Positions 9,601 through 63,559 of a DNA stretch of 64,000 bases are shown in pieces. Made by a program: the position numbers and the translations under genes. The stretch covers positions 1 through 64,000 of the forward strand of contig NW_026866660.1 of NCBI RefSeq assembly GCF_026571515.1. The letters run 5' to 3'. Origin of the DNA: Ruditapes philippinarum. Taxonomy: Eukaryota. The notes under the pieces are model-generated. The model worked only from the letters and a program-made list of their open reading frames with translations. It was not told the origin of the DNA and did no database searches. Position 1 is the stretch's first letter. Every line of letters begins with the position of its first letter.

Positions 9601-12600
9601 ATATACAGTTTTTTGTTCTTGACTGGCAGGAACATTTTTTGGATATTATGTTTGGGGACGCAATTTTAATGTAACCATTGCTAAAAGTAGATTTCATGTT
9701 TTTGCTAATTTAGTCTTTTTTTTTTAATTGACAAATATCATATTTGATCAATATTGCCATGATTGTTAAATTTGGAACTTGTGTTTTGCGTAACTCAAAC
9801 TGGATATGACATAGAGTCATAAAACTTTACTTGACCGTTGGTCAGCATGTATAGTTGTGCATCAGTGGGTTTGTGGTTTGCTTGTTTTAATATTCTTTTA
9901 AACATACTTCAGGATATAAAATTGGATTTTGAAATTTTTAATATTGGGAAAAATCAAGGTGTAAACATTGGAAAATGTGGATGTCGAATCCATGCCAAAT
10001 CTTCTTATGGATGGTTGTAATGTATACTTTCCTTTGTTTTTTCCTCTATCATACTGTCTGCTGTACGTCAATTGACTGACAAAACAGTTGAGTACTGAGA
10101 GGGGCATACGTGTCATATAGATTCTAGTTAAAATTTGATGTAGAAAACATAGGAACTCTGCCTTTTTTGTCCATGGCAATATGAAAATTATTTATAATTA
10201 AGATAAATAGGAATGTCTTTATGATAACCGCCGTATGAACACATCTGCGGATGTTTCTAAATTCAAAATTTTACCGGTTTCGTGTTTAATGTTGAATTCT
10301 GCTTAAGTCGGTGCTAGGGGGCGTGGACGGTAACTTGCATTTTCCAGTACCGCCATGAACAGGCTCAATCAAACCGACCCTGCAACATTTTCAATTTTGT
10401 CGTGTTGGGCTTTCTTTAGGGATTCAGTTTGACTATATCTTATAATAATACATATTGTAGACACAGCTGAAATATGCATAACTGCATTGAATATATTGTG
10501 TTTTTGGGACGGAGGCCTTTATTTATAAAATTAAATGTTTTTTTTTTTTTGTTGTTGTTAGTAGTAGTAAGTATAAGAGGTAGTAATGCATGCCCAATAA
10601 ATATATTTTGGTATCAGGAAAATTATTTACTTTAAACGAAAAAAACATATAAATATAGTGCGCTGAAAGGAGAAAAAAAATTACGTTTTAATAATAAAGA
10701 TTTCTGATTTTAGTGAGTTACAATAATTGTTAGGAGGTTTATCTAATGGCATGGTAACTTTATGGACATACAATTTAAAAACATCAAAAACGTGTAACTC
10801 ATTTTTAGACAAAATGCAAATAAAAAAATCAATTCATATTTCTACAGCATTGTAATATGTGGTATTCAACTGCTTCAATGATAGAAAATCTTACCTTCCA
10901 CTCTAACTGTCATCTTTGCATCTGCATTGAAAGGTACCACTTCATTTTTAGCAAGACATTTATAGATACCTTCATCTTCATCTTCAAGAGAATGAATCAT
11001 CAACTTGCCCATTGCACCCTCATTTTCAAGGATATGAATCCTACTGGTAGTTTTAATCTCTTTCTCATCTTTGAACCAAGATACAATCGGTGTAGGGTAG
11101 CCAGAAACTTTACATTTTAGCTCGAGGTTATCACCCAGAACCATATTCTTATCGCTGTCATGAGATTCTATTTTTGGACTTGCTGTAAAGATGAATAAAA
11201 AAAATACAATGACTCTTGTCTATTCAAACATCAAGATTCTTGATTGCATGATTTGATAAACTTTATTGTACTTTCTGATATATTTCTATAATTAGCCCAA
11301 CAATCGCCCTTAAGAGATACAGACAGAAATACATGTAGTTTGATGCTATTTTTAAAAACTTTCCAAACATGATCAACTTACTATTAAGGATAGAAAAGTT
11401 TTAAAATGTTACGTTTGTCAAGTAACAAAGTTTAAAATATTGCAATTCCATGGGTTCTCAATAACTTGTAAAAAAGAAACAACATATTTCATCTATTATT
11501 CGATTTGCTGGTAAATAACACCGATTCCCATTGATGCAATGTTTGAGGAGCCTCTACCATTCTATAAGCCGACTTTATTGATTCCTCCCATGATATTTTT
11601 CAATATTCTAGATTGGATTTCAATAAAAATGAAAATAATTTATTGAAAAAAAAGTACAATTATTTTCTAAGTTATCATGTGAACTCACCTTTAAGGAAGA
11701 ATGGATTGATACGGACAGTCTGTTTCTCCACCATGGAAGTAGGGAACATAACTACAACGCATTGATATGCTCCTAAATCTTCACGTGCTGCCAAATATTA
11801 CACATAAGAGGGTCATTTAGTTGGCATGCAAAATATTCCAAAGTTTCTATGTTTTTTAATATTATAGTTCAAATGTTTCAGGATTGCTTAATGCTAAGAA
11901 GTTTTGATTTAGATTTGTTGCACTGAAAACGTGTATAATTAATTATGATTTTTCAAATAACCAAGCGAGAAACTCACAAGTGGGGCACTTTTTGGTTCGA
12001 TTCTTGTATGAACAATGATTTTTTATGCAAGGAAAATGCCTATCGTGCCTGAAATAATGCATGAAATGCACATGAGGTATTCCTGCTCGAGTTAAATCAC
12101 CATATAAAATTTGCTGTATTTGCATGTTTTAAAAAACCAAACAAATAGGAAAAGACGACACTCTGCAGGGATTTCCTATATTACAATGAACACTCATGTT
12201 TAATCATAACACGTGGAACATTAAAATTGTGAATAAGTATCAGGGACTGTCTTAAGTAAGGTTAGTAAATTAAAGAACAAATACAATATAATTATGAAAA
12301 AAATGTACTCGTTCTTTTTTTGGTTTAGCCGAGATTAAATGTGTATTGTAGTACTCTCGCAATTATTCACTACAAAGTTTTCTTCAATCAATTGTTGTAA
12401 TTTAATAAGGGAATTTAATACAAACAATACGAATTCAAGTAAGTAGGCAATGATTACTTGGTTTAGAGATTTGTAGAGTAGTGTTGGTTATTTTGTACTT
12501 ATCATCATCTGCCAGGCGTGTCCCATTTCGCTCCCAAAATATTGTATGTTCAACAACAACTTTGGCAGCTTTGATGTTTATAATACATGGGAATTCTGCA

Positions 12601-23675: not shown

Positions 23676-26600
23676 ATGTTTCTTTCGCCTAGCAACGCAT
23701 TTGGAAATTTTAAATGGTTTCTTTTCATTATCGTTCTATGTCTAGTCAAAGGTAAGAAAGAAACATATACAAATTCATGAAAAAAATGTATAAGCGAAAT
23801 AATAATAGTAGTAATAGCAACAACAACAACAGTAAAAAGATAATAATAGTAATGGTAATTAAATCATATTAATGACTTCACTAAAATGTGTGCATTATAA
23901 AGTGCAAAAATATTTATAATGCATGTTAATCATTATCAAATGTCCGGATAATTTATCCTGATAGCGATAAATGATTCAGGTATTATAAATAGATACATAA
24001 TATAACATATAAAGAAAACAAAGCATTTAAGACCTATTACATCTATTCAAATTTCAAAGACTTAAAATACTTTCTTTGTATATTTTCAGTTACCACCTTA
24101 GACTTTACCATATCCAACGATAAAGTTTTGGAAGGTAGTTCAGGAACATTGACCATGATTTGTCATATAACAGAAACAGATGTTGATTATGTTTTCAATA
24201 TACAGATATTACGAATAAAATCCAAAAGTGTTTCAGAGACAAATCCCAGTAATTGGGATAGCTTAGCTGAAATGCACTTTGGACAAACCGAGAGACCAAG
24301 TTTGAGTCCAGCTATTAATGCAAGTGCTAAGGATTACGTTGCTGGAGGTTCATGGGGCAAGATAACACCTGTTAGTACATATCTTACACTGTCTATGAAC
24401 ATAGAGAAGTTAGTTTGTGATGATGCTAGAGCCTACAAATGTAGATTGATTTATAAAAGCTCTTCATCCGCAAGTATTGTATCTGTTGAAAATATGGGCA
24501 GTTTTAAAGTTTATGGTAAGTACATTTACAATGTCGTAAACGCTTGCATCAATTCGACATGAGCTCAAATCAATTTAAAATAGTTTATTGACATTGTAAA
24601 AAGATTACAGTGTATAGCTTTTTCAAACAATAAGTCAGAATATTGTATCATATACATGTCTTCTTTACTGTTTATAACTTTTTTATCAACCGTGTATTAT
24701 TTTTTATTTCTATGTTTCTAAAACTTACTTGATCAGATAGAAAATAATGATATTGAAGATTTACAAAAATCAATAATTTGTATATATATATATATATAAA
24801 ATATATTAAAGTCAATCATTTTCTACATCTGTGTCACCAATTTCCAATTATTATTATTCTGAACTACTATTTTCCAGATAAGCCTCAAATAACATCGTTG
24901 ATAGCAAGAATGAATGGTATTCTTGTACAAAAATCGTCATCTATGAAAATGGTCACGTGTAATGTAGGAGATGTTATAGAGCTCACGTGCACTGCTAACA
25001 TAGGAAGTTTACCGGAAACAATAATTAGGTGGCGTAGGGCACCAGCAAACACATCAACAGATCAGTTTATCGATTACCAACCAGCACCGGGTACAAACGA
25101 TGATGGAACTGCAATCAGTAACAGTCAATGTGGGTATACCAGAGTAGCTTCTATAAGATATAAAATTGAACCATCAGATGTTGATACTGATAGAGAAAAC
25201 GACATTGGATTTGAGTGTTATATAAGTCTAAGTGGAGATATTTATGGAAACTCCTTTGTAACTAAAGACAACCCAAGGTTTCTCGCTGACGCTAGTAAGT
25301 TTTTTGTATTTAAATTAAACAGACAAATGCCAATACGAGTGATGATCGTGTAAATTACATTTGAACACAAATACTAGTATGTTGCTTTGTTATTTACATT
25401 AAATACCATATAAGTACTTTTTTCTGCGGGAACTTTATGTCTGCTATTTCTGCGGTTCATAACGACACCGCAGATTTAAAAACCGCAGAAAATTAAGCCT
25501 TTCCCTGTTCGGTATGTCGGAATATGTCAACCACCGGTATTGTATAAATACATTACCCTGTACCGTTATCACCCTTTGTAAAAGGGAAATTTTCTTTATG
25601 TATCAGTCGTGATTTTATTATTAGAAAAAAATTGTTACTTTGCTTGTTCATTTTTCCCAAATAAATATCATGTTTGTATGATTTTCGCTCACCCTATCTT
25701 GATTTCTTTTTAGTAAAATAAAACTGTTCGTGCAATAAACATATCCTTTTGTATTTGTACACTACGTGCGATTTTGCCATTATTTATTTTTCACACTTCA
25801 TATTTATTCAATACAGTATAAAACTGGTTGCCAAAGCACGTTTTTATTTGTGTTTATTAACGTGTATATATCGATACAATTTGATTACGAAGAAACACAT
25901 TATTTGTTGTCTGGAGGTTATCCGGAACATGGTACGTCAACAAATTTTGAAATGTTGTTTGTATTTATCGGTTAATTTTGCAAAAATATCTTAATTAAGA
26001 CGCATCAATGCGAGAATGATGACCCCGAAGAAATAAGATACGCAGAAATTTTAAACCCCTTATTTTAACAAAAATCACAGAATATTAAGCCCGCAGAAAT
26101 AAGTACTTTTACGGTATAGTGTTTGGTTTTGATTTATGGCACTATATCATATCGTAGAAAGTTTGTTTTATGTCTTTCAAAGTCTTTCTTAGACAATTCC
26201 CGTTATAATTCTAGTATTATTATATTATTATCCCCCACCAATAAATGTGTTGGGGGTGGCTATAATGGATTCGCTTTGTCGCGTCGGTCGGTCCGTCCGT
26301 CTCCATTATTGTGTCGGCTCTATAAATCCTATACCAATTGAAGAATTTTCTTCAAACTTGGCTCAAATGTTCATCTCAACTAGGCAATGTGCAAAACCCA
26401 TCTTACCCTTGTGCCAGCTTAAGGTCAAGGCCACAGAGTCGAACATTGATTTAGAAAATGTTCTGAAATTTTAATATGTACATGAATATTTCTAAAACTA
26501 GAACAGATTATCATTTGAAACTTCAAATATATACAAAGTGTCGCAAGTAAGATATGCAGGTCAAGTTTCATAACTAAAAAAATGTTGGGGATAACTTTGT

Positions 26601-29600
26601 ATTGTATTTTGACAAAGTTAAGTCTTTTTTCATGTCTTTAAATTTATTTACTATAATATTTCATAAACCAGAGCAGATATTTACTTGAAATTAAAATTTA
26701 TATGAATGGTTTACAAGCAAGCTCAGATGACAAAAATTCTACAATTCCATTGAATTATGACACAAGTTATGCCCCCTTTTAGGCTTAGAAAATTTTCTGA
26801 TATAACCATTAATACTAAATGTTTTGAAACTAGAACAGATATTCACTTGACTTAAAACTATATATGAAGGGTCACAAGTAAGCTCAGTATGCAAAGTTTT
26901 TCCACTCTTAATTACATTTTGACATAATTATGCCATTTTCTTAACTTCACTACTTATGTTTGTTTGTTTTAGTACATTGGGAAAATGAAAGGTTATTTGT
27001 AACTGTTTCGAACATGATTTGACAATATATATTTATACTTTACCTGCGTGTACAATTTGTCTTTTTTTCGCAAGAGATAATTTTTTTATGTATATGTATT
27101 TGTGCCCATAACCACCTTTCCAAGTCGTATTATGTCAAGGACATTTGTGGGGGTATGAATCCCATTAAGCGATAGTTCTAGTTTTTACATTAATGTATCA
27201 TCAATTGTCAGTGTCTCAAATCGTCAAATAGATGTAAGATCCAACTCACTCAATCGAAAAACACAATTACTAATAAGTAATTTCCTTAGGTCCATAAATT
27301 TCTAAAGTGTAATGCGGTTTTCGAATTTGAACATTTTTTGAATCTATGTACAAGTTTATAAACTGTTTTCTATATCCGCACGTTCTTTTAGCATTGGAAT
27401 GTTTCTAAAATACTGAAACTATAAAATATCATTTATTTATCATAACAACAAAAACAATCAATGTTTCACATTTAATCCTTTGAAATCCTTTTTCAATACC
27501 ATGGAGTTCGTAACGTTTAAACCACACGTTTTGTTAAATCATAAAATTGATTTTATCTTAATCTTTTCTTTTAAATTCCAGTGCTGTTTATTTCATATTT
27601 AAAAAATGAAGAAGAAAAAAACATTTCACAAAGTTATTTTCTAATAAGTATTGCTTCATGGTCGATAATATTATGATGACATTTCCATTTGCAGATGAGC
27701 TAACGACATTAAGAAACCCAGTCGACGTCACGAAAGGTAATTTATGAATGATTTTCTTTGACATTAAAGTGCGTTGAAATAACTTATATTGGACCTTCAG
27801 ACAGAACAAAATATATTTGAAAGAAGAGTTTCAGTGCATTTATTGACATTTATTTTATGCTTTTCAGTGGATTACTGATTTATCCGTGAAAATTATATTT
27901 GATAATTTCACAGTGAAAATTATCAAAATATATTTTCACACTTTTCAATGACGAAACTACTTTTTTAAGATTTTCCCCATGTGGTACCTCAATTTTATTT
28001 TTTCTGACTATTCCGACAATGTCAGGCTGTTTAAAGAAAAACAAAAGTGAAATTGATAAATAACTTATATGTCAAAAGTAATAAAAAGAAGAAAACTTAC
28101 AGTATGTTACTTCTATTCATTCAAAATACCAATCACCAAATATCGTCTCTTTAATTTTTTGTTTCATTTTTACAGTCTGAAAAATCACTCCTTCCACATG
28201 CAAAACTGCTCTTGATGACATTTGGGAATATTTAAGTATCCTACGAGCAAAAACTGCCGTATGCTTAATGAAAACTTGAAAAGCAATGGCAGCTTTCAGT
28301 CGAGGAATATGTAAAAATCCCAGCGTTCGTAAGGCTTCCAAAATTTCCACTTTCCTATCCACTTTTTTGAATATTTACACATCTGTCAACACTTATTTAT
28401 TGTCTGTTACAATCCTCAAATAAGTTTTCTATCTTTTAAAAAGGTGTATGACTAAGAAATCCAAATGATATCCCCCTGAATCAAACACAATTATTTTCCT
28501 TTAGTGAAATTACTTTAAAAATGGCGGCCGCTTACATTTAACAAAGCAAGGTCTAATATAAATTCGCAGTCAGTAACAGAAATATGGATGGATGGTTGGA
28601 CTTTTTCTCCAACTAGAATTGTTTGTTTTTATTATTTAAACAAGCGATCAGACATATTTGTTTAATAAAATGAATACTATCACCACCATTTAACGTTGAT
28701 TGTGGAACTTATTTTTCAGCCCATGACTTCTTGTATCTAATGAGAAATTCGACTTTTTGAGGCTCTCAAAGGGGAAAACAGATTTTAATATTAACGTAAA
28801 TATTAGGGAAATTTCGTTTTAACTTGTTTTTAAGCATAAAATAAAAAGAAAATTTGTTTGTTTGTTGTGTAAGATGTAATTTTATTTCATCTCGTGAACT
28901 TTAAAAACAGTATTCTCACTCGTGGCTACGCCACTCGTGAGAATACTGTTTTTAAAGCCCACTCGATGAAATAAAATTTCATCTTACACACAAACAATCA
29001 AATATCCTCTATATATTTCTAAATTACAAAAAAGATAAACAGCTCAAGTCAAATTATGTGAGATAAATACTTTTTGCATGAAGGAACATTTCCTTTATTG
29101 CCTTAATCATTTTTCATTTATGCTATTTAATTTTATTTTCAACATCTCATTTTCTAATCAAACACTAAATAGAAAATCAGAAGAGTTTTTTACAGATTCC
29201 TGAAAAAAGTAGAACCTACATTAACCGCAGATAATCCCCAATACATTTTTATAACAAAGCGAAAGTCGGCCCATATTAAATGATAAAATGTCAATTCGAA
29301 GCGTGTATACATTAGATGCTTGACTCGTATTAGATGCTTGACTCGTATTATTTAGTACCTTTACTTGTTTTCCCTTAAGACAATGTGGATGCGTCTCTCA
29401 CTATAAGCAATATAAGTGCAGCTGAGAAAAATTATACCAAGCGATTTCAGTGATCCCATCATTGTAATTATAATACTATATATCTTGAAAAAAACTTATA
29501 CTTACATACATTTTATTAAGTTATTTATTGACAGATTAAATGGAATATTTATATATAAATTTCAGGTTATAACGATATCGAATTATCAATGAGTGGAATG

Positions 29601-32419
29601 GTTGGAGCTATTGTTGTTTCGCTAGTCGTTGGAATTCTTACTGGCATGCTTTGTACCTGGATTGTTCTGTATAGGAAACGAAAGTCTCAAGGTAATTATC
29701 TACTAAAAATATATAATTTGCATAAATAATTATTCCTGACATACTTGCATTTTCATATACCCTACTAAAAAGATAATTATAATGCGAATATTGCATACTT
29801 TTGTGTTTTTATTTAAAAATAGATATAATAACAATACAAATAACGTGTATATTCTTTATAAAGTGCCTCCAATTTATCACTTTCCCGTTTTATAGCCTAA
29901 AAATTACGATTACCTATTGGTAAATTATCAAAAATCTCTTACTATTGTCTAGTTATTTACATGATATGTGCCATGAAATAATGTTTGTATAATGTAACAA
30001 TGTTTAATTTTTTACCAAACGCTTTAGATTTCAATCAAATTACTTCATTTATGTGATAATAATTTATTATTTATACCTACTTATATCTAGCTTTTAACAA
30101 CGACCATTAAAGTGATAAAAATCTGATTTCTCAAAAGGTCAAAAACAATGGTATCAAAACTTAAGTGCTGTGAAGTATTTCGATATGACCAAATTTGTAA
30201 AAAAAATAACAAGGCAAAATTTATTTTATAATATAGTAACATACATAATTTTAAAAGGCACAATTTGATGATATTGTATACTAACAAAATAGGTCAGTCG
30301 CAGCAAGAACAACTACACTCTATACAGGCTCAGGAAACTGTGTTTAATAACATTTTATCAACATCGTAAGTAATATATTTTTCTAAATCTTTAAGTTAAA
30401 CTTGTAAATGTTGTTAATATTTCGTTTTAGTTAAGAATATGACTATGAACAATATTCGGAGATTGAGTCAGACATAGGTGGACACAAAAACAGCAAACAA
30501 ACAAACAACAAACTATGTTACATAGTCTGTTTGAAAAGTCATGATTTATTGGGCTACTTACAAGGACAATTGGGCCATATCGATATCGCCGTAATGATTG
30601 GATATAAGTTTGAATGTAATTATTATTTTTAGAAACATGTACGAGCAACTTCAAAACCGGACAGAAATGGAAAACAAAGCAAATTATGACACTCTGAAAG
30701 GTAAATGTTTGAAAGTACTCGTTTTGTCCTAAATATAGTGTTGGTATAAAAACATTATTACTTTTAACAATAAATTCTCCTCAAGCTGGAAAAATCAATT
30801 CAAGTAGTATTTATTATATCATGTTCATCCACCAACTAGTTCTGCTTAACTGTGCTCGTTCGTCCATTAGTAAAGAATTCCCAAGCAAGTATTTTGACAA
30901 CCAAGTATAGAAGGATCTGAAGATTACGATAGTAGATTCATTTCACAAAAAAGTTTTAGTCGCATCAATTTGATCTAAAATTGGTTTAATCGTGTTATTC
31001 ATGTAATATTATATCCATACATTAAGAAATCTTAAAATTGATTTATTTTTATTTTTGTTATATTGTTATAAACAAGGTAACATCCAAGTAAGAAATTATG
31101 GGTATTTCCGTCCTAGGTGTAAAAATTTTACATACTTTAATGGTCTTATGCTCCAGGGGTCATAATAAGTTATATGTGACTGCATATCAAGAAAGATTCT
31201 ACATGTAGAAGGTAATTCCGAAATTGGAAGTGTTCTCCCTCAACAGGTGCGTGGAGGACGGAAGACGGAGAATACTTCCGGTAGGATTTACCTTCTGTAA
31301 ATATCGTCTACATGTAGAATCATTTCTAACATACAGGCACATAAGACTTAGTTTCACTCGTGGAGCATTAGGCCATTAAAAAGTATATAAAAACCAGTTG
31401 CATGTGTGTTTGACCCATTTGGTCTCTCTGTTGATGCATTTCAATCGTAACATGTCATGACGGTCTCATCCTGGGCAAAATCTTATTTTTGGGCTTTTCT
31501 GCTTTTCTGAAGATTTGCTCATAGTCAGTTTTGATAGAAAAATATGTATTGCATTGATTCCATGCAAAAAATCCGGCAAAAAAATGACACCGAGAATGGG
31601 CATACCAATTATTTTCGTACTTGGATGTTGCACACCTTGTCTATAACAATTTAACAGAAACATAATATGTTTTCTTTTATTTTACATATTTTTAATATTT
31701 GGATAAAATATAACATGAATAACAAGATTAAACATATTTTAGGTCAAATCAATGCGACAAGCACTTTTGATTTTACGTACTAAATCGTATGCGTATTTTT
31801 ATGCTGCAGAAATATTGCTTTCCTTATTACATTGTACTGTATGGAATCCTAATCGTTATCAATTACCTTGATTTAGAGCAGACATTTATCATCTGACATG
31901 TAAAAATAAAGATGCATTACTAAATTTATTGTGATGACCTTCGTTTTAAATATTTCATTCGACCATGTTTAGCTGTTTTAACAATACATCAACATTTTGA
32001 ATAATTTCAGGCGATTCTGGTAACAAGATAAGCAGGTCAGTAGAATTCAATAGAATCTTTATTTAAGACATTTATGTAACAACATTTACGTGAAAGTCTG
32101 GAACTATTTCTTGAGTACTAAATACACATGAGTGTCTTTGAAGTATTGAAATATAATAATAGTTAAAATCAATGTCATTGATATGGTAACACGATTTCCA
32201 AATGATTTTCGTGTAAGATAAATATGTGTTACAAAATTATATGGATCAATTTATTTTATTATGTATTTCAAAAACAGGCTATGTTACTTATTTAAAAATT
32301 TAAGTGTTCATATCTATTTTTTTTATTATTTCAGCCAAACACATTATGAGAGACTTCAGCAGGGAGCAAATGAATTATTGTCCTATGAAACGCTTAACAT
32401 ACCTAATAAAAGTGCTTAA
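23676..32419 (+). CDS. Gene B: type I IgSF receptor (signal peptide, two Ig domains, stalk, TM, tail with two ITAM-like motifs), about 445 aa
   Basis: Exons 23676-23751, 24090-24515 (LTMIC..WDSLA..CDDARAYKC), 24878-25294 (IELTCTANIG..IRWRR..FECYI), 27695-27736, 29566-29691 (TM, MVGAIVVSLVVGILTGMLCTWIVLY-RKRK), 30293-30365, 30633-30700 (YEQL-x11-YDTL), 32011-32035, 32335-32419 (YERL-x9-YETL, stop). All GT-AG; the 1338-nt join is an open frame. Confidence 0.85.
25404..26116. mobile_element. MITE, same family as 1675-2157
   Basis: TACCATATAAGTACTTTTTTCTGCGG / CCGCAGAAATAAGTACTTTTACGGTA terminal inverted repeats; subterminal CGCAGA repeats. Confidence 0.7.
26225..27184 (-). mobile_element. Helentron/HINE-like element, reverse orientation
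   Basis: Hairpin CCCCCA..TGGGGG and GTCC/GTCG microsatellite at left, degenerate internal repeats, CTAGTT end at right. Confidence 0.6.
28855..29012. mobile_element. Palindromic MITE (long hairpin)
   Basis: TGTGTAAGATG.AATTTTATTTCATC...TTTAAAAACAGTATTCTCAC-TCGTGGCTACGCCACTC-GTGAGAATACTGTTTTTAAA...GATGAAATAAAATT.CATCTTACACA. Confidence 0.8.
31132..31386. mobile_element. Degenerate foldback MITE
   Basis: TTTAATGGTCTTATGCTCCA / TGGAGCATTAGGCCATTAAA outer arms and GATTCTACATGTAGA / TCTACATGTAGAATC inner arms. Confidence 0.65.
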
Positions 32420-33039
32420 CGAACAATTCGCAAACATCCAAGCTGTTGGTGACATTAATGGAATGAATAAAAACATATATAATCAAGAAATATCATTAAT
32501 AACCCCTAGTTAACCCAAACATCAAATAAATTTTAATATATTTAGATCAAATATTTCGATGGAACAATGTTATTTGTACGTAAGACTTATTAATTGTGAA
32601 CATTCAATTATTACCAGAAAATCACTTAAAGAATAACCCGCGCAACGGGAGCTATAAGGAACTGAAAAGTTATTAATTAACATGGGTCAGATAAACACCT
32701 TAAAGGACACCTGTATGCAAAATTTAAACAAACTTTATTGTATGGAAAACGAGTTTTGTCCACTTATCTGAACTGACGCTTAAATGTTAGAAGGGCCTTT
32801 TTTCGGGAACCATGTACTAAATACATGAAATTTATCTATGTATTTTCTTTATGAGCGATTGAAAAAATTATATATAGTTGAATAACTTTAAATATATCAA
32901 TAAAGTTATTTGTATTGATAGAACTTATGTAAAAATAAAGGTACTTTTATAAACTTATTGTGATGATCTTCATTGAGAATAATTCAATGTACCTTGCTTA
33001 GATTTTTTAACTATACATCAACATTTTAAATATTTTCAG

Positions 33040-33447
33040 CCGATTCTGTTAACAAGATAAAAAGGTCAGGAGAATTCAATACAGTTTTAATTTGGGAACT
33101 TTGTGTAACAACATTACGTGAAATTCTAGAACTGCTTCTTGAGTACGAAATGCACATGAATGGCTTTGAAATACTGAAATATTATAGGAGAAAATGATTT
33201 CATTGAAACACGATTAATTTTCCAAATGATTTCGTGTATGACAAATATGTTTTGTTTCACAAAATTGTATGGGTCATTGTATTATTCTATGCATTTTAGA
33301 AAAAGGCAATGTGATTCATTCAAAACTTTAAATGTTCTGATCAATTTTTGTTTTTATTTCAGCCAAACACATTATGAGAGACTTCAGCAGGGAGTAAATG
33401 AATTTTCGTCCTATGAAGCGCTTAACATACCTAATAGAAGTGCTTAA
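33040..33447 (+). CDS. Duplicate, intact alternative terminal exon pair of gene B
   Basis: Exons 33040-33064 and 33363-33447 (SQTHYERLQQGVNEFSSYEALNIPNRSA*) within an approximately 1.03-kb tandem duplication of about 31900-32930; splice sites and downstream AATAAA retained. Confidence 0.7.
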
Positions 33448-35754
33448 CGAACAGTTCGCAAACATCCAGGAAGTTGATGAAATGAATGGAATGAATGAGG
33501 AACATATTCAAGAAATATCATTTAGTTCTCCTCATTAACCCAAACATCAAATAGATTTTAATATATACATGTCAAATATCCGATGGAACAGTGTTGTCTG
33601 TATATAAGATATATTTAATTGTGAACATTTATCACCATAAAAAAGGGTATGACCATCCTAACGGGCACTATGAGGAACTGAAAAGTTATTAATTAACATA
33701 GGTCAAATATACACCTTAAACTGTATGCACAATTTCAACAAACTTTATCGTATGGAAATCGAGTTATGTCCACTTATCCGAACTGACGCTAAAATGTTAG
33801 AAGGGCCTTTTTTCAGAAACCATGTACTGAATACATTAATTTCATCTATGCATATTCTTTATGAGCGATTTGAAAAAAAATATAGTTGAATAACTTTCAA
33901 TATCTGAATAAAGTTATTTGTATTGATAGCACTTACATGACTTATGGCCTGAATTTCAAATTAACACGATGAGTTTTAGCTCGTATCATTGTGCTTTATG
34001 ATTATTCTAAATACATGGCTCTTGTTCCAGCAATAAATAGGGATGCATTCACGGAATGGCTAAAGGGTAATTGAGCTCCCAGTTAATTTCTCCGCACCAT
34101 GCCATCTTGCAAAAAAAAACACAAAAAAACATTTCCTATGTTATTTAAATTAAGGTCGAATTATTTGTCTGCTGAACACTCTTAGCAGCTTTGTATACAT
34201 GCACTCATGTCACTTGTTGATATAATGCCCTTATCCATATGTCAATCAGCTTGTGTCTCTTATTATTTCAGTTAAGATAGAGTTACAACTTAAATGCCTA
34301 TTCTACTTGTATATTAAGGTATGAACATCGTAATGCATTACCTCCGCTTTGAAGAGTACAATAATTTATTCAAATAGGCTAGAACTATTGTCAACTTCAT
34401 TGAAACTTGGCCGTGGGTTCAAACACACCATAGGGTCAACTTCTTTTCTTTTAACATTATGAATCTCTCATTTTCCGTTTGGGACTGAAAAAGTGTTTAA
34501 TTTTAATTGTTTAATCTTATTAAATAAAGTATTTATTAACTTAATCTAATATCAAATACGGTACCTGATATTTTCAAAGTGTAATAAAATCAAAACTACA
34601 CGATAGTATTTATATTTTACAAGATTGACCAATAAACTTATGAACCAAAAAATAGGGAAACTTTGAAAACAGAACTTTAATGGATTTTTTAATTAGGCTC
34701 TCTAGCACCTTTTAAAAATGGGTGGAATAGAGTTACATTTTATATATATTCCATAAATGTTGAGAAGAATAAATCATTTTGCTTATGTTGTTTGTCAACT
34801 GAATGGTACTATTTGTTTCTTACCAAATAGTAATGGGAAAACATTTTTCATTAGAATGATATTGTAGATTATTTTAAAGATCCTTATTTCTGTTGCGCAA
34901 AATTAAATACCTAAACACGTCTGAGAAATAAAATTTGCTCGAATGGTTGCAAATCAAAGACATGTCAACATATTTGAACTTATCTGCAACCCTAAACTAA
35001 CAATCTTTATACATATTTTTAAATGTGTCTCTACTCCAATGTACGTAATAACCATGCGATGTTTGTGTGCATAGATGTGTATCAGTTCTGCTGCGGATAG
35101 GCAATGAACGCTCCAAATTTCCAAACAATGTTCTTAATTCTAAAAGCCCATAAGAAGATATGGGCTACTCGTAATATCTTCAGGTCATAAGTTGTCGATT
35201 CTAAAACCCCATATCAAGATACAGTGTTTAAAATTAATTATTTTAGGTAAAGGTGACAAAGTATAATAATATGAAAAACTATAAAAAAAGCATTCAAGTG
35301 AAATGTTTTATTGAACTTAACGTACTGTGCAAAATTATATAACATGTCTGCTTGACAAATCATCAGCAAATAAAAATCACTGATAAAAAATTGAATATTC
35401 AAGAACAAATTCAACAGTTATAAACAAATGAATATTCAAAAATAAAATGAAATAGTTATAAACTATTGAACATTCAAAAACAAATTAATTACAGGTTCAA
35501 AGTAATGCATTAAAATACATAGTTACATGTAATGATATGCTGATTGTTAGATGTGTAATGATATGCACATAATTCTGTGTAATAGAATGTCAACTAGTTT
35601 AATGCTACTTTGAAACCGTACAAGTTTAATAACAATGTTTCGAATAAAAAAGTTAAAGTAAAGATGCATACAATATGTAGGGATTCATGTAAAATTATAC
35701 AATAAAACAAGACATTCAGGTAAGTAAATCGTTATACGACATCAAAACTATATA

Positions 35755-45659: not shown

Positions 45660-47399
45660 CTTAATTAAAATATCTAACTTGCAATAAGGAAATTTGTGAT
45701 TCTTCTAATCTGTTTATTTATAAAAATATAATAAAAGAGTTTTAATGGCTAGAAAAGCACATTGCTAATAACAATTTTGATTAAATACAGCTATTATAGT
45801 CTATAAACTATGATAGAAAGAACAAAACAAGCAATATGGTAAACACGACTTCCCCTAAATATACAGAAAAAGTAGAATCCTTAAAGAAAACACTGAAAAC
45901 AGTAAAAACTTTTAAAAAAGAACCAGTCTCAGTTTGAATGTAGTGGTTATATACTTATAACAGCTTAAATTAATCCATTGTTTAAATGCTTGCATAAATC
46001 ATGGTCTTTCAAAAGGAATTTATTTGAAAGACCCGTACTAATTTCCAGGGATACTTCTGATACATTGGTTTAATTGAAGTTTGATAGCAATCAATTTAGG
46101 GTTATTTACAATGAATGTTTTAATTTATGTTTATTTATAACCTCTATGCCCCATGATTTTATACAATATTAAAATGCAACTAGTCTATAGACAATGTTTA
46201 AATGGTTGGGCTGTTGGACTGTATTAAAAAGATTTCTGGTGCTGAGGTATGGTATTTTGAGAGTCCTTGGCTTGAGTCCCAGTCAGGCTTTATATTCTTC
46301 TCCCCCTTTGATATAAATGGATATTTCCAGTTTATCAATGATTTATTTAATCAAATTTGTGAAAAAAATAATGTCAATAAATTTAACATATGACTTCTTT
46401 TGTATGAAGCAAGTAGGAACTTGCCAACACTAAATTGTCAGCATGTAGACTGAAGCCCTTAATCAATTTCTTTCTTGTAACCAGTGTGAGTTTTATGCCA
46501 CATGACCTGTAAGAATTTACATATGTGTAATACCACAGGGGTATTTCCTTTAGGACTACTAAAACAAGAAGTAAGAAACGCAAATACATATAGTCCTATC
46601 CAATGTTCACAGGTCGTGGGATTGGCAGACAGTACCAAGTAGGACCGTATCAAGGGTGAGCTTAGATCAAAAATGTCATCAATTTTTTGGACACTGGCAG
46701 ACAGTGATATTCAACCCCCCACCCGTTAGATCAGTTAGGAAAAATTGTCCCTGGGTCTTCTTATTTAAATTTGCTTTCTTGCGAAAGCGAAAGTAGGTCT
46801 TAGAGGACTAAATATTTTATAGAAAATATAAAGAAGGAAAATATTAGCGATTAATGCTTACTAATCTGGAATATATACCAGTGATTATAGATGTATAATA
46901 TAGCACATTTATAAATATATAAATTGGATAATGTCATATAAATTTCATCGTAGTTTAATATAAACAGTTTTTGGAGTTCCTCACTTCTCCCAATCAATGA
47001 TGGAGCATGAGGTTAAGTGGTCTCCTCATTTTCCCAATTTTGCACAATTACAATGGCGGCCACAAAATGAAAGTTAAAGATCGAAATAAAGACAGCGTTT
47101 AATAAATATTATCATAATGCTTAATCTAAACCCTTAAAAATCTGCATGTCTAGCAATCATTTATTAAATCAAAAGGGTAAAATACCACAGACTAATATAT
47201 CAGAATGTTTTTAAGCACTTTATTGTCTGCGTGCTTAAAATCTAGCATTTTAGGTGAGCATTTATTGCTTTGCGCCTACGTATTGTGCACATAATCGTCA
47301 ACCGAAACGTTCATCCAACTATATACACACATTTCCAAATCAAAGATTTGTACAATTTGAAATATTTATTTCACCTGACAAAAAACAGTCCAATCATAT

Positions 47400-50050
47400 G
47401 GGGACCGGTAAAGTGTCTGGTATTTTAACTGATGCAGCTATAAGTTGTGATCTTATAAAGAAAAACGTTAATCATAGGAAGTCTAAGAAAAACAATAAGA
47501 TTTGGTTTGAGAGTGATTGTAAAAATCCTCGTATTCAATATATGAATTATAAAAACATGTATAGCAGGAACCCTACTGCAGAAAATAAAGCTAGTTTAGT
47601 TTGTAGTAGCCGACAGTATAAAATAGAAGTTAAGAAAAAGTTTAGAGCATATCAGAAAAGCATTGTTGATAAAATTAAAGGTTTAAAAAATAAAGATCCT
47701 AGATCTTATTGGAGTCTATTGAACAAATATTCAGGTGAGCGGAAGGAAGTTATTAACAAAGTAACAACTGAGGCTTTTTTTTATCATTTTAGTAAATTGA
47801 ATGAGGTTGACACTCAAGTTGACATTGATGACTTTGATATAACTAATGTCTCGTCAAATAACTCTGATTTAGATAAACCATTTACTGTATTAGAAATACG
47901 TAAAGCTATTATTTCACTGAAAAACAATAAAGCATCATCTTCCTTTGATCATGTATTGAATGAATATCTGAAGAATGTACCCGACAGCATGTTTGATGTG
48001 TTTTGTTATTTGTTTAATATTATTTTAGATTCTGGAATTTTTCCTGAAGTTTGGAGTAAAGGGATTATTTTACCAATATACAAAAACAAGGGTAACATAG
48101 ACGACCCAGATAATTTTAGGGGAATTACTATACTTAGTTGTTTTGGGAAACTTTTCACAAATGTTCTAAACTCTAGACTCAATAATTTTTTAGAAAGTAA
48201 TAATATTCTCTGTGAAGAACAAGCTGGATTTAGGAAAAAGTATAGCACTACTGATCATATATTTTCTCTGAAAACTTTGATTGATTTATATCTGTCTAAA
48301 GGTAAAAAGTTATATTGTTCTTTTATTGATTATAGAAAGGCTTTTGATAGCATAAATAGAACTGCATTTTGGCAGAAATTAATTAGCAATAATGTTGATT
48401 GTAAATGTATAAAGATCATTTATAACATGTATTTACAAGCTAAATCTTTTGTTAAAATTAATTCTTTTAGTCATATGTCGGAATTTTTTACAAGTCATAC
48501 AGGCGTTTGTCAGGGTGAAAATTTATCTCCCATATTGTTTTCTTTATTTTTAAATGATTTAAACTACATTTCCTGTATTTCCTGTCACAACATTTTAATG
48601 GTCTGGATCTACTATCAAACATTGTAAATGATACCCTGAGTGATTCTGATGTTGAAATGTATTTTAAATTGTATATTCTTTTATATGCTGATGACACTGT
48701 TATATTTGCTGAGTCTGCTGAAGAACTGCAAAAAGCACTAGATGCAATGTCAAATTATTGTCAATTATGGCATTTACAAGTTAATCCTTGTAAAACTAAA
48801 ATTGTTGTTTTTTGTAAAAGTAAAAGAGGTTTATGTAATATTCCAGCCTTTAGTTTTGAAGGTAATTTGCTAGAAATTGTTGATGATTTTTCATATCTGG
48901 GTGTTAAGTTCTCTTATAATGGTAAATTTGCTAAAACAAAGAATCATTTATTAGAACAGGCAAGAAAGGCTATGTTTTCAATTATAGTTAAGGCTAGAAA
49001 ATTGGATTTGCCTATCAGTATGCAAATTCATTTATTTGATAGCATGGTAGCACCTAAATTGTTATATGGTAGCGAAGTGTGGGGGATTGAAAATGTGAAT
49101 ATCATCGATAGATTTCAATTAAAATTTTATAAACTCATATTAAATTTGAAACAAAGTACTCCAAATTGTATGCTTTATGGAGATTTAGGGATATTACCTT
49201 TATCTATTCATATAAAAAGTAGAGTTTTGTGCTTTTGGAATAAGATTTTAAGTAGCAAACAAGAATCAATAAGCCACACATTGTATGATATGTCACACTC
49301 TTTGTATTGTAGAAATGTGTTGAAACTCCCATGGATGAATAGTGTTTGTAAATTATTAGATTCACTGGGTTTATCAAATTTTTGGATTAATAATGTTGCC
49401 ACTTCTCTTCTATTGTTTAAGAAAATTGTTAAAAATAGACTGAAAGGTCAGTTCATTCAAAATTGGCATAGTGAAATGTCACAATCAAGTTAATGTCTGA
49501 ATTATAGAATGTACAAAAGTGAATTCAGATTTGAAAAGTATTTAGATATTTTACCATCTCATTTAGCTTTGGTACTATTGCGCTTTAGATGTATGAACCA
49601 TAAAATGCCTATTGAGTCTGGTAGACTTTGTAATATACCAAGAGAATTAAGAGTGTGTAATTTATGCAACAATAGCTCACTTTGTGATGAATATCATTAT
49701 TTATTTAATTGTCAATTATTTAATACTGATAGAAAAAAATATATTACTAGAGAGTATAGTACTAATGTTAATTCAATCAAGTTTTCTATGTTAATGAATA
49801 GCACAGATAGGAGTATATTGTTAAAACTTGCAGTATTCTGTAAAAAAATTATTTCAGCATTTAAGTAACTGATAATTAAGCTTATTTTCATAATGTAACA
49901 TTTTCATTTTTGATTTATATTTGCCATGTAATACATCAGCATATTTCGTGGATATCTCTTTATATGTCATACTTTATGTATATATTATTGTATATGTGAC
50001 TGATGCCTCTATGAGGCCCAGCATTTTCAATAAACTGTTCAAACTGTTCA
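47400..50050 (+). mobile_element. 5'-truncated non-LTR retrotransposon (RTE-X-like), ORF2 reverse transcriptase disrupted
   Basis: RT motifs PIYKNKG..PDNFRGIT, EEQAGFR, FIDYRKAFDSI, GVCQGENLSPILF and LLYADD; C-terminal CxxC..EYH..C knuckle. Frameshift near 48570-48650 and stop at 49491-49493; no endonuclease domain. 3' end AATAAA overlapping (AAACTGTTC)2. Clade assignment is inference. Confidence 0.9.
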
Positions 50051-55332: not shown

Positions 55333-58300
55333 ATGTCATATTTAAATCTTAAATTTCTCCTTTTCTTTATTGTATTCACAGCAAATGAAGGTAAGTTATA
55401 ACACTGATTTGTTTCAAATATTTTCTTTTATTAATTTCCGTTTTATTCTACGCAAAAATTGATTAGAAAATGTTCATTCCTTGAAAGTGAAATGATCCCT
55501 AATAGAAAGTCTGCAGTATCATAAAGCATTATTATGTAAGTATTTGTTTCATTCATGACAATAAAACCATGAAGAAAAACTGTGGATGTTGTTAGTGTGA
55601 GATACCTTATACAATAAAACAATTTATATAATCGAAATATTATTATCTAGCTTTTTAATGTTTATACTTAATAACATGAAACTCTATCAACATTGCTTTA
55701 TTTCCTTTCTTTTCACACTGTTTCAAGAATATTTCAGAGTATCCAATTGATATATTTCCATTGTTTTGTCAATAATTTACTTACTCCATCGTAGACCAAT
55801 CTATTTTAACATTAGTACATTTCAACGTTACACTCGTATAATACTATTTTCAAGCTCTGTAGTATGATATAAGTCACATATAAAGTTTGCAGCGAATTAT
55901 TACATTGTTATATTGGAAATAATGTTATTCAAAATGTCGTATATTCAAAACTTTTGTTTTTCAGATGCATTCATGACACAAACTGGTTCCGACGATACAG
56001 GTAAATTGTTAAGATGATTCTACAAAACATTTCGGAGTTCTGTCCAGTTGGTCTCTCTTGTACACATGTATGTAATGCGGTAATTGTAATGTGGGCATTT
56101 TATGTATGCATTGCGGAAATTATAATTTGACATATTAGTTCAATCGGTATGCATGTATTTAAACTATCAAAAATGTTCCACAATACAACTTCTTTAATCT
56201 TATATGCTTACTTAACATTCTGAATTTGTTTAATTCAATAATTGTAATGAGACAAATATGTAATGCATTACACAACATTATTTCACATGACTATCAATCA
56301 AAAAAGGTTAATTATTTCAAAAAACATTAAACCGTCATTAATGATATATGATCACTTTTAGCAGCTCTCCAGGTAGAATTATAGACCTTCAGTAAGCAAG
56401 TCTAATAGATTTCAAAAGCCCAGTGCTAAGAATGTATATATATAATATAATATCAGGATTTTTTTTGTTCACTTTTTCAAGTCAGGTCCTAAAATTTATG
56501 TTATGCAGTTACTGTATAATTTGGAAGATTTAGAATCAAAGTATGAATGTGAATGTTTCAGAAAGTATTTAAAGTTTATGTAAGTCATGCATTAAACATG
56601 ATATGATCCTGATGAATACGTGTAATTGTTTTGGGTAGTTTTGAAAATGGAACAAAACATTAAGGAATTTAAATGTCAAAATACAAAACAAAAATGACAG
56701 GCCAACAATAAAGGATCTGGTCAGACTGCGCGGATAAACATGTTGATCTAGCTATAATGCTGGTGACAAAAGGCGCAGCTGGCACTGTCGGTTCTAGCAG
56801 GGTGGACGAAATCTGATCTTCTTAAACCCATTTAGACATTAAATGTACACAAAAGTACCATAAAAAGTGCTAGTCAAGAAAATGGACCCATCGCTATATA
56901 TAACATAAGTTATATCATTACACCTGTATATAACATAATACATACATTATATTTGATTTGAAGAGATAATTCAATCATTTCAGGATACGGCGATTTTGAC
57001 CTACCATTTATTATTTTGGTTGGCATGGGCGTATTAGTGTTTGGTTTTCTGTTTGGTGTTTGCTGTGCTTGTGCGCTTTTACGCAGAAAAGAAAGTGTAA
57101 AAGGTAGCATTATGTTTGTTTATGATTGTTTTAAATCACTAATCTTGCTAAAATTTTGTGTTGACATTTTAATGCTTTGTGTAGGTCAATATATAAGAAA
57201 CGATAAATTGTCATTCTATTGACAATTGAGATTTCTATTAATATTTGAATTGTTTATTGGACGCAAATACAACACAAAACATAAGGAATGTAGTACACAA
57301 AATTATCTTCAATTCAATACCATTAGAAGAACCACTGAAACTATAATGTTGGAAATTTGGCGCATCTATTCAAGATATTGAAATAACCGTTTACTTATGT
57401 TGCAATAGTTAAGATACCACTTAAACATTTTATCCATCGAAAATTACTTAAAATTACCTGCATTTCATTACTTGAAATAAAAAGCTATAAATACTTTGTC
57501 TACAAACCCAATGATATACTATTCTCAAATTTGATATCTCAACATATTGGTAATTTCTACACAGTTAGCACTATATATTATTGTATAATAAACAAATAAG
57601 TACCCACTAGGTACTATGTACATGAGTATATCTTCACGATAGCATTGTCTGAAATTGATTCAATTTGCTATTAGGCAGAATACGTCCGATGAAGCAAGGT
57701 CAACAAAAGCCAACACAGTCTGGGGAGACTGGCTTCATTGTTTTAAGTCCTATAGAGTAAGTTATTTTATGGTCTTACACAATGTATTTATAGTGGCATA
57801 TTTCTGCCAACAAATAAGAACTAAATTGATAACAACATTAATAAGCTGAAACGTAAGTTAGTGTTGGTGTTTAGACTTACCTATCTGGTTAACAAGATAT
57901 ATTTTCTGTAATAAAAGTAATTTAAATATAAATATCTATTTATCAAAAACTGATAACACTTGCTCGACTATTATCTGATATTAGGTGGTTGTCAATGAAA
58001 GATAGTTGTTACTTATTATACAAGATAATTTTTGTTTAAATCCATTTGATATTCGTGCTTTTTGGTATTTTATAACTATTTGTATAACTTGTTAAATTTA
58101 CAGGTACTTAATTATTGTATAATATTTCGGATATTTTCCTTGCACAAACATTATAAGAGCAAATTAACTTAGTTTAGATGTTAATTTCATTCAGAATTCT
58201 GAAATATACCTGATTTGATTTAGTAAAACAGTAAAAATCACTTTTATGCATACTAACTCATACGAAGTAAGATAAACATTTTTATCTGATATTTTATCGG

Positions 58301-61300: not shown

Positions 61301-61594
61301 GATTCAGGTAGAGAGATAAGTGTCATTTACGGCATACTTTTGACAGTAATTGCTTTAAATATGATTTATTTGAAGGTTGCCGAAGTAAAAAGGGTACACT
61401 AAAGTGTGTTTACATCAGTTTTAAATTATTTAGAATACAAACATTTATCATTTTTCGTAGGAATTATTTTCATTTGATATCTACATGTACCTAGTATATT
61501 ATTGTACTTTATATAGACTTTATATGTATATTGAGGTTATTTAAACGTTATTTATTTGCCTATTTTCAGCCAATCACACAGTGACACACTTTGA
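55333..61594 (+). CDS. Gene C: Ig-less paralogue of gene B; transmembrane adaptor-like protein with a repetitive tyrosine-motif tail, about 278 aa
   Basis: Exons 55333-55390 (MSYLNLKFLLFFIVFTANE), 55965-56000, 56984-57103 (TM, FIILVGMGVLVFGFLFGVCCACALL-RRK), 57675-57756, 58750-58817, 58974-59046, 59343-59410, 59835-59907, 60252-60319, 60462-60534, 60776-60843, 61125-61149, 61570-61594. All GT-AG; the 837-nt join is an open frame. Exon sizes 73/68/25 and phases match gene B. Confidence 0.78.
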
Positions 61595-63559
61595 GAGATG
61601 ATATGTTAACCAAGAGCCGATTCAATTTTAAACATGGTGCTAATTTTAAATTTCAGTTCGAAGTTTTAACCTTGTTACACCGAAGTTACAAATTAAGCTC
61701 TCTGCAGACATTTTTTTAAATGTTATAAAATTTGACTCGAGAATAGGGATATTAGAATTTGCAAATTAAGAGCACTATACTTTTAAAAGAGAACTCAACT
61801 GAAAAGCATGTTCTAATAAGAATTATTAGTCTAAATCGATAGATAACTTTATTTAATATTAGCATGAGCAGGTGTTTTGAACACATTTTTTACAACAACA
61901 AAAATACATTTTTTTTTAAAATGTAAGACTTTAAATACCGATTATGCCCAAGAATATTTTTTTTTACTTTTTCAAAAGCTTTTTCTTTTGATTTCCAGTT
62001 TTATCAAAAATACGTATAAGCTGCATACAGTCCTGATATAGTGATATAGTATTTTGTATGAAAGTCAAAATACGACCTTTTTATATATTGCTACTTTGAT
62101 GAGAAATAATTTCATATATAGCCCCTTTTTCAGGTAGCAGATATTCAATATGTTATTTTACTATTACCTAAATATTGAACAACTCATGTTTGTCTTTTTA
62201 AAAGGAAGGGCACACTTTGTTTCCAGATTTTTATTCGTTTCTGAGTCATAATGTTCATAATTTTATTAATTATCAGCGAAGTTGTTTAGGAACTCCTGTT
62301 TGTTAAAGATATATGCAAAATGGAAAAGAATTGAGATAACTCCATCAATAGATAATCAATATACCTGTCATATATTTGATGTCGAATCAATAAATTTAAA
62401 AGTTAAGCTTATATTCACTTATGAACAGATGATATACTTATTGGATAATTAAATTTGATTTGACAAATTGAATTCTTTGTGACTCTTTTCAGGGTTTGAT
62501 TTCTTTGAAACAATATAAATAGATAGATTACCTTTTGCAAATTGTCACTTTAATTCTTATTTTATTTTAGGGATGATATTGATAGAAATATTTATTTGCA
62601 TATTGAAAAATTTACAATGCCTTTTTATGTTTATGATTCAAACATATCTACGTTTACAAACCATTGTACATGTACTACAATATTTGTTCAATAATTGTGA
62701 TTAAAGTCTGTGAATAGCTAAATTAGTGAAACTGATATTTTAAATCATTAGTATAATAGTTTATTATGATGTAATATAGACATAGTTACCATGAACTTAC
62801 ATGATATTCATATACAACCACGAATCTATGTGTATAGTATGCACACTTTTTTGTTAACTTATGATTTTCAGTGCTCCTTTTGGTTCGTTTATATTATTTA
62901 AGTTTCTCTTTCAATTGTCATTTTCTTACATCATACTTTCTTTACATAAATATTGGCTTTTTCCCTTCATGTTCACTGTTTTTTTCCTCCATATACATAT
63001 GTTCGGAACATTGTAAAGATAATGCTCTCAATGCTAATAATATATTTCTTCGGATGCATGATATTGACAGCGCGGTTTTTGTTGTTCCGAACATCAATTT
63101 TATAATGACAAAACACCTATGCATGATGTCATGATGTATGTACATGAAAATTCTCCCTCTTACTGAATATGCTTGCTGTCCAAACATTATTCTAATATAC
63201 TCGCTGCCGTATCATATATGGAATTAAGTTGAAGACAACATTTACATTACAGACAAACTCTTACCACGCTATGTGTGTTATATTCAAAATGTAGTCTTTA
63301 CTCATTTATTCATCCCTAATCTCACTAAAATGGTGTGCATTCAATGGCTGTATAGTGTTATTAATCTATTTGTAGATATACCCCCACTACCCAAACTGAC
63401 CAATCATCAAAAATTTTCTAAAATGTCGTCTTTGTCTCTGGACCTATCAGATCTAATATCGTCAGATTCCTGTTTACATGAACGTGCTAGTTTGTTAGCT
63501 CGTACATGTTCTGAAATACGAAAATGACGTCAAACAATTACATAATATAATCGTCTCAC

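Follow-up and report, generated by a model that had tools for sequence, protein, structure and literature searches.

A two-Ig receptor with tandem ITAM-like tail motifs in Ruditapes philippinarum and its probable place in a proposed paired receptor family of bivalves

Gene structure and splicing of LOC132733261

The window analysed here, a stretch of 64,000 nucleotides from Ruditapes philippinarum (contig NW_026866660.1, positions 1 to 64,000), contains LOC132733261, a gene for a membrane receptor with two predicted immunoglobulin (Ig) domains and a cytoplasmic tail that carries two motifs resembling ITAMs, the tyrosine-based activation motifs of immunoreceptors. A nine-exon model with AG/GT exon ends, running from the ATG at 23676 to the stop at 32419, gives an open protein of 445 aa consisting of a signal peptide, two Ig exons, a stalk, a membrane helix and an 89-aa tail (Table 1). 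The model corresponds to the RefSeq gene, which differs by 26 extra residues from an upstream ATG. All eight exon joints are bridged by public contigs, each joint in 2 to 4 of 4 runs (four studies), and the first two joints are also found in a second set of 4 runs (2/4 and 3/4). The runs are guessed to be RNA, none being on record as such, and splicing is read from the joints; the contigs carry no information on tissue or expression level. An earlier reading of this DNA, made from the letters alone (the sequence-only reading), had placed each tyrosine pair on an exon of its own, which the joints bear out; its motif positions are likewise correct (YEQL 30640, YDTL 30685, YERL 32345, YETL 32384, and CDDARAYKC 24416 in the first Ig domain). 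The 25-nt micro-exon, which the sequence-only reading had left unmentioned, is required for the YERL/YETL frame, and skipping it leads to a different frame.

Downstream of the gene lies a tandem copy of its 3' part. The duplicated last exon would be open if spliced, yet it is seen only unspliced, in contigs 32708-33389 and 32887-33383 that cross its intron, and no joint to it occurs among the 15 joints listed (of 54). Whole ITAM exons are duplicated in paralogues too (C6486:259586/260196; 28142/28997).

Table 1 Features of the window, in positions of the 64,000-nt stretch; cysteines are numbered as in protein P0001 (LOC132733261).
Feature	Position	Strand	Basis or remark
Exon 1, signal peptide (RefSeq start 26 codons upstream)	23676..23751	+	model; joint 23749>24088
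Exon 2, long V-type Ig; B-F cysteines C76/C169, extra C161	24090..24515	+	model, alignment, structure
Exon 3, second Ig (C2/I-like); C231/C307, extra C278	24878..25294	+	model, alignment, structure
Exon 4, 14-aa stalk	27695..27736	+	joints in 4/4 runs
Exon 5, transmembrane helix plus basic stop-transfer residues	29566..29691	+	model, joints, structure
Exon 6, 73-nt juxtamembrane tail exon	30293..30365	+	model, joints
Exon 7 of 68 nt, carrying ITAM-like pair 1, YEQL-x11-YDTL	30633..30700	+	model, joints; conserved
Exon 8, 25-nt micro-exon, sets last-exon frame	32011..32035	+	joint 30698>32009 in 4/4 runs; 32032>32332 in 2/4
Exon 9 up to the stop codon, with ITAM-like pair 2 (YERL-x9-YETL)	32335..32419	+	model, joints
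Tandem copy (81%) of 31898-32927	32927..33935	+	second micro-exon 33040-33064; second last exon 33363-33447 (YERL-x9-YEAL)
Second gene with the membrane-plus-tail skeleton	55965..61620	+	membrane exon 56984-57103
I-set Ig exon of an unrelated gene	10878..11219	-	
C2H2 zinc-finger array	38.8-40.4 kb	-	
Reverse-transcriptase fragment	47254..48624	+	
Tandem repeats	near 18.4-19.4, 35.7-37.0, 41.2-42.2 and 45.3-45.7 kb		

Fold of the ectodomain

The two Ig domains claimed by the sequence-only reading are supported by structure prediction as a V domain followed by a C2-like domain. The model, calculated with a 33-row alignment, has predicted local distance difference test values mostly of 85-97 over residues 51-330, and shows the Ig beta-sandwich, the B-F disulfide and the C-strand Trp that characterize the Ig superfamily (IgSF). 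In a Pfam scan both Ig exons stayed below the cut-off, a search of the ESM Atlas returned only generic Ig receptors, and Foldseek with the whole model found mostly antibody Fv chains with poor template modelling scores; a VIA search was used in its place. The best VIA matches, in the range Z 13.6-12.3, are two-domain pieces of V plus C2 type: SYG-2 heads them (Z 13.6, root-mean-square deviation 3.8, 211 residues aligned), together with CD166, Lutheran, nectin-3/4 and Rst D1-D2. Similar scores were obtained for B7-H6 and CD200R. Prediction of an ectodomain homodimer, in which the alignment was not used, scored 0.01 and is evidence neither way.

Five residues (C76, C169, C231, W245 and C307) are invariant in the 33 sequences, as is one extra cysteine in each Ig domain. 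In the model, C161 sits in the E-F loop of the first domain and C278 in the D-E loop of the second; as these loops oppose each other, the two extra cysteines may form an inter-domain disulfide.

The extra cysteine before the F-strand motif is a pattern also of FREPs, and the sequence-only reading had likened the first domain to those of FREP/VIgL-type proteins. Membership in that group is contradicted by domain content: the Pfam scan found no lectin domain in LOC132733261, and fibrinogen, C-type lectin and galectin domains were found in none of the 81 proteins scanned among 96 profile hits. The definition of VIgLs demands one of these three domains at the C-terminus (PMC9334734), and by that definition LOC132733261 is no FREP/VIgL protein.

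Tyrosine motifs of the tail and candidate signalling partners

All four tyrosines of the tail stand in YxxL, and both pairs, spaced x11 and x9, satisfy the broad ITAM consensus YxxL/I-x6-12-YxxL/I (PMC6994640). The arrangement exceeds what chance would give, two non-overlapping pairs of this form turning up twice in 200,000 shuffled tails. The tandem motifs are real and conserved across Ruditapes paralogues and Mercenaria, a check that the sequence-only reading had itself named. In a hand count, 27 of 31 matches to the pair-1 exon keep both tyrosines, 24 keep both as YxxL and in three the first tyrosine position is a stop, counts that rest on tblastn matches, which favour intact motifs. The last exon of paralogues typically reads YE[SG]L-x9-YA[DG]L, and the Mercenaria relatives keep both pairs (YEHL-x11-YDSL and YEKL-x9-YTSI/L). 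We call the motifs ITAM-like because the x11 spacing and the residue at -3, acidic in the stricter consensus, fall outside it. Vertebrates have longer-spaced ITAMs that bind Syk.

The distal pair had also been read as overlapping an inhibitory motif (ITIM) and a switch motif (ITSM). LSYETL does match [ILVS]xYxx[LV], but it is no conserved ITIM: at the aligned tyrosine, the -2 residue of the 14 other relatives compared is H, Q or P, with one S and never I, L or V. The chance that at least one of four YxxL motifs has I, L, V or S at -2 is ~0.69. The likening of THYERL to an ITSM is not supported, T at -2 recurring in 1 of the 14 relatives and +3 being L; the ITSM consensus has V or I at +3. Because it is unconserved and readily expected at that rate, the ITIM/ITSM overlap is likely due to chance.

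The same genome contains Syk-like tandem SH2 exons (on C14746, closest to SYK and next to ZAP-70; SH2 E value 6.5e-18), Shark-like exons of SH2-ankyrin-SH2 order (C560, recognized by eye) and SHP2-like SH2 exons (C10217; SH2 E value 5.9e-35). Of the Src/Syk-Shark coupling that the sequence-only reading had suggested, the presence of Syk- and Shark-like genes stands, while the coupling itself we infer. In oysters, the Ig receptor CgIgR binds and recruits CgSyk (PMC6994640), and CgNCAM1, which has two ITIMs, interacts with CgSHIP2 (PMC11841013).

The gene family and its ITIM-bearing member

A V-exon query gave 45 matches among 54 candidates in the Ruditapes genome. The sequence-only reading had missed this family, as well as its ITIM-bearing member and the shuffled tail cassette. 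The DNA examined held 25 V exons with clear splice sites, 21 of them open; six V-exon and four Ig2 hits lacking clear splice sites were excluded from the trees and from the ratios of nonsynonymous to synonymous divergence (dN/dS). Against all other copies LOC132733261 has a V-exon dS of 0.8-1.2, and on this measure it is an early, divergent offshoot of the family. Broken copies resembling it (71-73% alike) lie on C5824 and C2850. Five family members (P0002, P0054, P0003, P0018 and P0019) lack a signalling tail and some of them have a hydrophobic C-terminus, as seen in gene models only; these C-termini may be glycosylphosphatidylinositol signals, and the tail-less members may be shed decoys. 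In P0065 and P0071 (Dreissena and one further record) this Ig pair is joined to adhesion G protein-coupled receptors, and in Mya P0089 to F5/8-type domains.

LOC132741494 (C3394:235423-274278) has the family ectodomain, but a different membrane exon and tail, the latter with tandem ITIMs (LHYAEL and VEYAEV). RefSeq lists eight isoforms of it, which use one or the other of two membrane exons and of two last exons, the latter being one with the ITIMs (C3394:245689-245868) and the other with the end GIGTGV, which we take to be PDZ-type. The ITIM exon matches once in the Ruditapes genome, and the receptor is single-copy. The alternative membrane and last exons both recur in Mya, and the choice of tail also in Dreissena and oyster. 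The tail of this gene was found in Mercenaria, Mactra, Mya, Dreissena, Sinanodonta and C. gigas (LOC105345013 in the last); where the ITIM isoform was among the returned sequences, LHYAEL and VEYAEV are kept in Ruditapes, Mercenaria, Mya and Dreissena, and C. gigas has LHYADL and TEYASV.

Conservation of this gene is uneven along its length. Between LOC132741494 and the Mercenaria ITIM gene, membrane segment plus tail are 81% identical, the V domain 44% and Ig2 60%; membrane plus tail reach 56-72% in the other clam pairs and 38-44% against oyster, with the V domain at 19-32% against the others. Within Ruditapes the relation is reversed: compared to the ITAM-bearing paralogue P0005, LOC132741494 is 76% identical in V and 87% in Ig2, with an unrelated tail (20%). 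These two genes combine, in one genome, similar ectodomains with opposite tail motifs, an arrangement typical of paired receptors of CEACAM/Siglec type. The closest partner of the ITIM gene is LOC132713922.

The ectodomain tree unites all 17 Ruditapes rows in one clade (support 96/95), places LOC132741494 beside two ITAM genes (100/99) and requires 7 changes for the eight rows with ITIM or conserved tail. One row (C15147 87k) is counted as ITAM in the table of tree groups though no ITAM was found there, which leaves the tree unaffected. Approximately unbiased tests, made with 16 of the 37 rows under LG+G4 (Ruditapes clade 88/87), reject a clade of the Ruditapes and Mercenaria ITIM genes (p 1.5e-26) and a clade of all ITAM genes (p 7.7e-08). 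Judged by these trees and tails, the ectodomains group by species and not by tail type, while the inhibitory tails stay orthologous.

For pairs with dS <0.5, the median dN/dS is 0.64 in the V exon (63 pairs) and 0.30 in the Ig2 exon (80 pairs), and the variable V positions, 84-130 and 166-186, cover the C, C', C'', F and G strands with their loops. These ratios are a sign of relaxed or mixed selection and are not proof of positive selection. DNA similarity between LOC132741494 and five family loci is confined to the two Ig exons, and alignable flanks are missing in 3/3 Ig2 pairs of the ITIM gene and a family member that are at least 90% identical, versus 3/12 other pairs. At 85-90% identity, 27/29 of the other pairs lack them as well, and exon-limited gene conversion between the ITIM gene and the family is possible but unproven.

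The membrane-plus-tail cassette and look-alike receptors in other bivalves

The membrane exon and the two tyrosine-pair exons form a cassette. In Ruditapes it is also attached to EGF-repeat, other-Ig and EGF ectodomains, and in Mercenaria to an Ig-FN3 ectodomain (P0061, P0069, P0080, P0095); it matches 14 contigs that lack family Ig exons. In P0063 (LOC132751731, C6486:197889-204999), a protein of 172 aa, the membrane helix and the two tyrosine pairs are preceded by a signal peptide and a very short ectodomain; this protein may be an adaptor of the DAP12 kind or a receptor that has been truncated. The window itself holds a second gene with the cassette skeleton (Table 1), composed of a membrane exon, three 73+68-nt modules, a 25-nt micro-exon and an early-stopping last exon; its tyrosine motifs have decayed in part (the first module reads YEEF-x11-YDSI), and upstream of it there is no Ig exon of the family. 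A comparable exon occurs at C2850:13335.

ITAM-like look-alikes of the ITIM gene are found beyond the venerids. Mya MAR_021551 has an Ig2 domain 86% identical to that of the ITIM gene two locus tags away, a similar membrane segment and the tail YEHL-x7-YTEL. The Mactra pair is 89% identical, and the tail there reads YTNL-x7-YMDI. For an ITAM-like receptor of Ostrea, the likeness to the ITIM gene of C. gigas is 58%, in a comparison between species only. Because the Mya, Mactra and oyster tails are unrelated to the venerid tail by z-score (mostly <3, at most 4.2, compared to 6-32 among venerid subgroups), separate origins of these tails are suggested.

Interpretation and alternatives

We favour, with moderate confidence, the reading that LOC132733261 activates through Src and Syk as one of a family of paired receptors at whose centre stands the conserved ITIM receptor, and that it has probably drifted to a ligand of its own. 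Every signalling and ligand step of this reading we infer. A ligand bound to the variable V domain would cluster the receptor, a Src kinase would phosphorylate the YxxL pairs, and Syk (or Shark) would dock on the phosphorylated pairs, leading to uptake or haemocyte activation; LOC132741494 would recruit SHP2 and damp the response. The family could have originated by repeated copying of the ITIM-gene ectodomain, perhaps through exon-limited conversion, onto the mobile membrane-plus-ITAM cassette. Its members would probably be counter-receptors against microbes that bind the inhibitory receptor, LOC132733261 being the early offshoot that probably drifted away.

Several observations weigh against this proposal. 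LOC132733261 and LOC132741494 are only 51% identical in V and 54% in Ig2, with dS of 1.19 and 0.99. The cassette stands on unrelated ectodomains, so its presence here need not tie the gene to the ITIM receptor. In the tail, the x11 spacing of pair 1 exceeds the x6-9 given for ITAMs in PMC9546547, although pair 2 has x9, and the residues at -3 are S and Q instead of the acidic D/E of the ITAM prefix in PMC6994640. The orthology of the ITIM genes rests on tails and not on synteny, and no other family copy occurs within the 98 kb read around LOC132741494 in Ruditapes. Haplotype or segmental copies account for some of the paralogues (C5824 and C15147:63-95 kb are collinear at 83-97%), the median dN/dS is below 1, and at 85-90% identity 27/29 of the other Ig2 pairs also lack alignable flanks.

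The low identity to the ITIM gene and the spread of the cassette, over EGF-repeat, other-Ig, EGF and Ig-FN3 ectodomains and the contigs without family Ig exons, would suit a stand-alone activating pattern-recognition or engulfment receptor, like CgIgR or Draper, whose ectodomain was borrowed from an adhesion or ITIM gene and joined to a portable ITAM cassette with no functional pairing. We regard this as unlikely, since it leaves unexplained why the ITIM gene combines a fast V domain with a conserved tail (44% versus 81%), why it is nested among ITAM genes and why unrelated tyrosine tails recur on the same ectodomain in Mya, Mactra and oysters. The adhesion molecules at the top of the fold matches (SYG-2, CD166, Lutheran, nectin-3/4 and Rst D1-D2) and the alternative GIGTGV end of LOC132741494, presumably PDZ-type, would in turn suit a nectin- or SYG-like code of cell-cell recognition or adhesion, possibly neural, developmental or gametic, with the tyrosine pairs serving cytoskeletal adaptors. 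A shared V plus C2 fold shows no function, however, B7-H6 and CD200R scoring alike, and broken copies, changes in domain number and species-specific expansion fit the birth-and-death of immune genes better, which makes an adhesion code improbable.

The allorecognition role raised by the sequence-only reading, in which the protein, in the manner of Hydractinia Alr or Botryllus FF/FcoR, would balance ITAM against ITIM signalling in response to self ligands, gained no positive evidence. Those systems do consist of clustered IgSF genes with ITAM/ITIM tails (PMC9546547, PMC12582321). In the clam, the V domain is more variable than Ig2, chiefly within residues 84-130 and 166-186, and the V-exon differences at 24277, 24278 and 24291 in the contig of one run each change a residue. 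Against this, the V exon differs by 0-3 letters from the window in the main contigs listed for 7 runs, a weak argument as runs were ranked by likeness to the allele; differences in the second run set, which may partly stem from the broken copies on C2850 and C5824, are not counted as alleles. We know of no fusion-rejection system in solitary clams, and consider an allorecognition receptor or determinant highly improbable. We give hardly any credence to a dual switch receptor with the distal motif acting as ITIM or ITSM. Consensus matches can be listed for it (LSYETL itself and, in the broad form, SSYEAL of the tandem copy and SQYESL at the third tyrosine of many paralogues), but such matches are frequent by chance, I/L/V at -2 is absent from the 14 relatives, THYERL has L at +3, and a dedicated ITIM gene exists.

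Beyond LOC132733261, the paired-receptor reading can be extended, tentatively and with less confidence than for the gene itself, to bivalves at large. They may have a CEACAM-like paired system built on an ancient two-Ig ITIM receptor, whose ligand-binding domain was driven to extreme divergence, probably by exploiting pathogens or foreign cells; activating look-alikes with different tyrosine-pair tails would have been spawned independently in venerids, Mya, Mactra and oysters, in venerids by means of a portable exon cassette. If so, vertebrate-style pairing of activating and inhibitory receptors would have evolved convergently in protostomes, and haemocytes would have a candidate 'self' brake. 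Functional pairing would mean that an arms race of the kind known from CEACAM, Siglec and similar pairs had arisen anew, and several times, in protostomes. LOC132741494 would then be a testable candidate for the haemocyte brake and, in farmed clams, for a receptor through which pathogens enter; that it bears on how clams tolerate transmissible cancers is speculation. With the ITAM exon cassette as a handle, the activating receptors of the clam genome could be listed.

Comparison with known systems

An Ig receptor bearing an ITAM is a known kind of bivalve protein, and oyster Ig receptors with an ITAM and with ITIMs have each been described singly. The literature searched, largely without subscription journals and with CgIgIT/CgIgIT2 known by title only, contained neither this family nor any ITIM/ITAM pairs of Ig receptors from molluscs; compared to that literature, the ectodomain-matched ITIM/ITAM arrangement repeated across bivalve lineages is the new element.

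The gastropod FREPs, CREPs and GREPs share with the clam receptor divergent Ig domains that profile scans barely catch (PMC9334734); it differs from them as a type I membrane protein with a signalling tail and no carbohydrate-recognition domain. Hydractinia Alr and Botryllus FF/FcoR resemble the family as invertebrate IgSF clusters with ITAM or hemITAM and ITIM tails, poorly detected Ig domains and splice-switched tails (PMC9546547, PMC12582321), and differ in being linked to allorecognition loci of extreme polymorphism. Among bivalve receptors, CgNCAM1 (PMC11841013) is, like CgIgIT and CgIgIT2, an oyster Ig receptor with ITIMs that damp haemocyte responses; CgNCAM1 has three Ig domains plus FN3, and a search of the accessible text of that paper did not return the word 'paired'. 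CgIgR, which operates with CgSyk (PMC6994640), is a bivalve Ig receptor with its own ITAM, as is the clam protein, in whose genome Syk is present. The two were compared by features and not by sequence: CgIgR combines five Ig domains with a single ITAM that bears the acidic prefix, the clam gene two Ig domains with two pairs that lack it.

The closest parallel is found in mammalian CEACAM1 and its ITAM partners. The clam family is of protostomes and no homology is claimed; its V plus C2-like pair has two extra invariant cysteines, its tail has two ITAM-like pairs with one exon for each, and its cassette also stands on EGF and Ig-FN3 receptors. In both systems, a single ITIM gene combines a conserved tail with a fast V domain, and its paralogues, such as CEACAM3, group with it by species (PMC2832619, PMC5112662). 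The ITAM lies in the receptor's own tail, on exons that come from another source, and the similarity resides largely in the Ig exons. As described for CEACAM1 and its ITAM partners (PMC2832619), the ectodomains of the clam receptors group by species.

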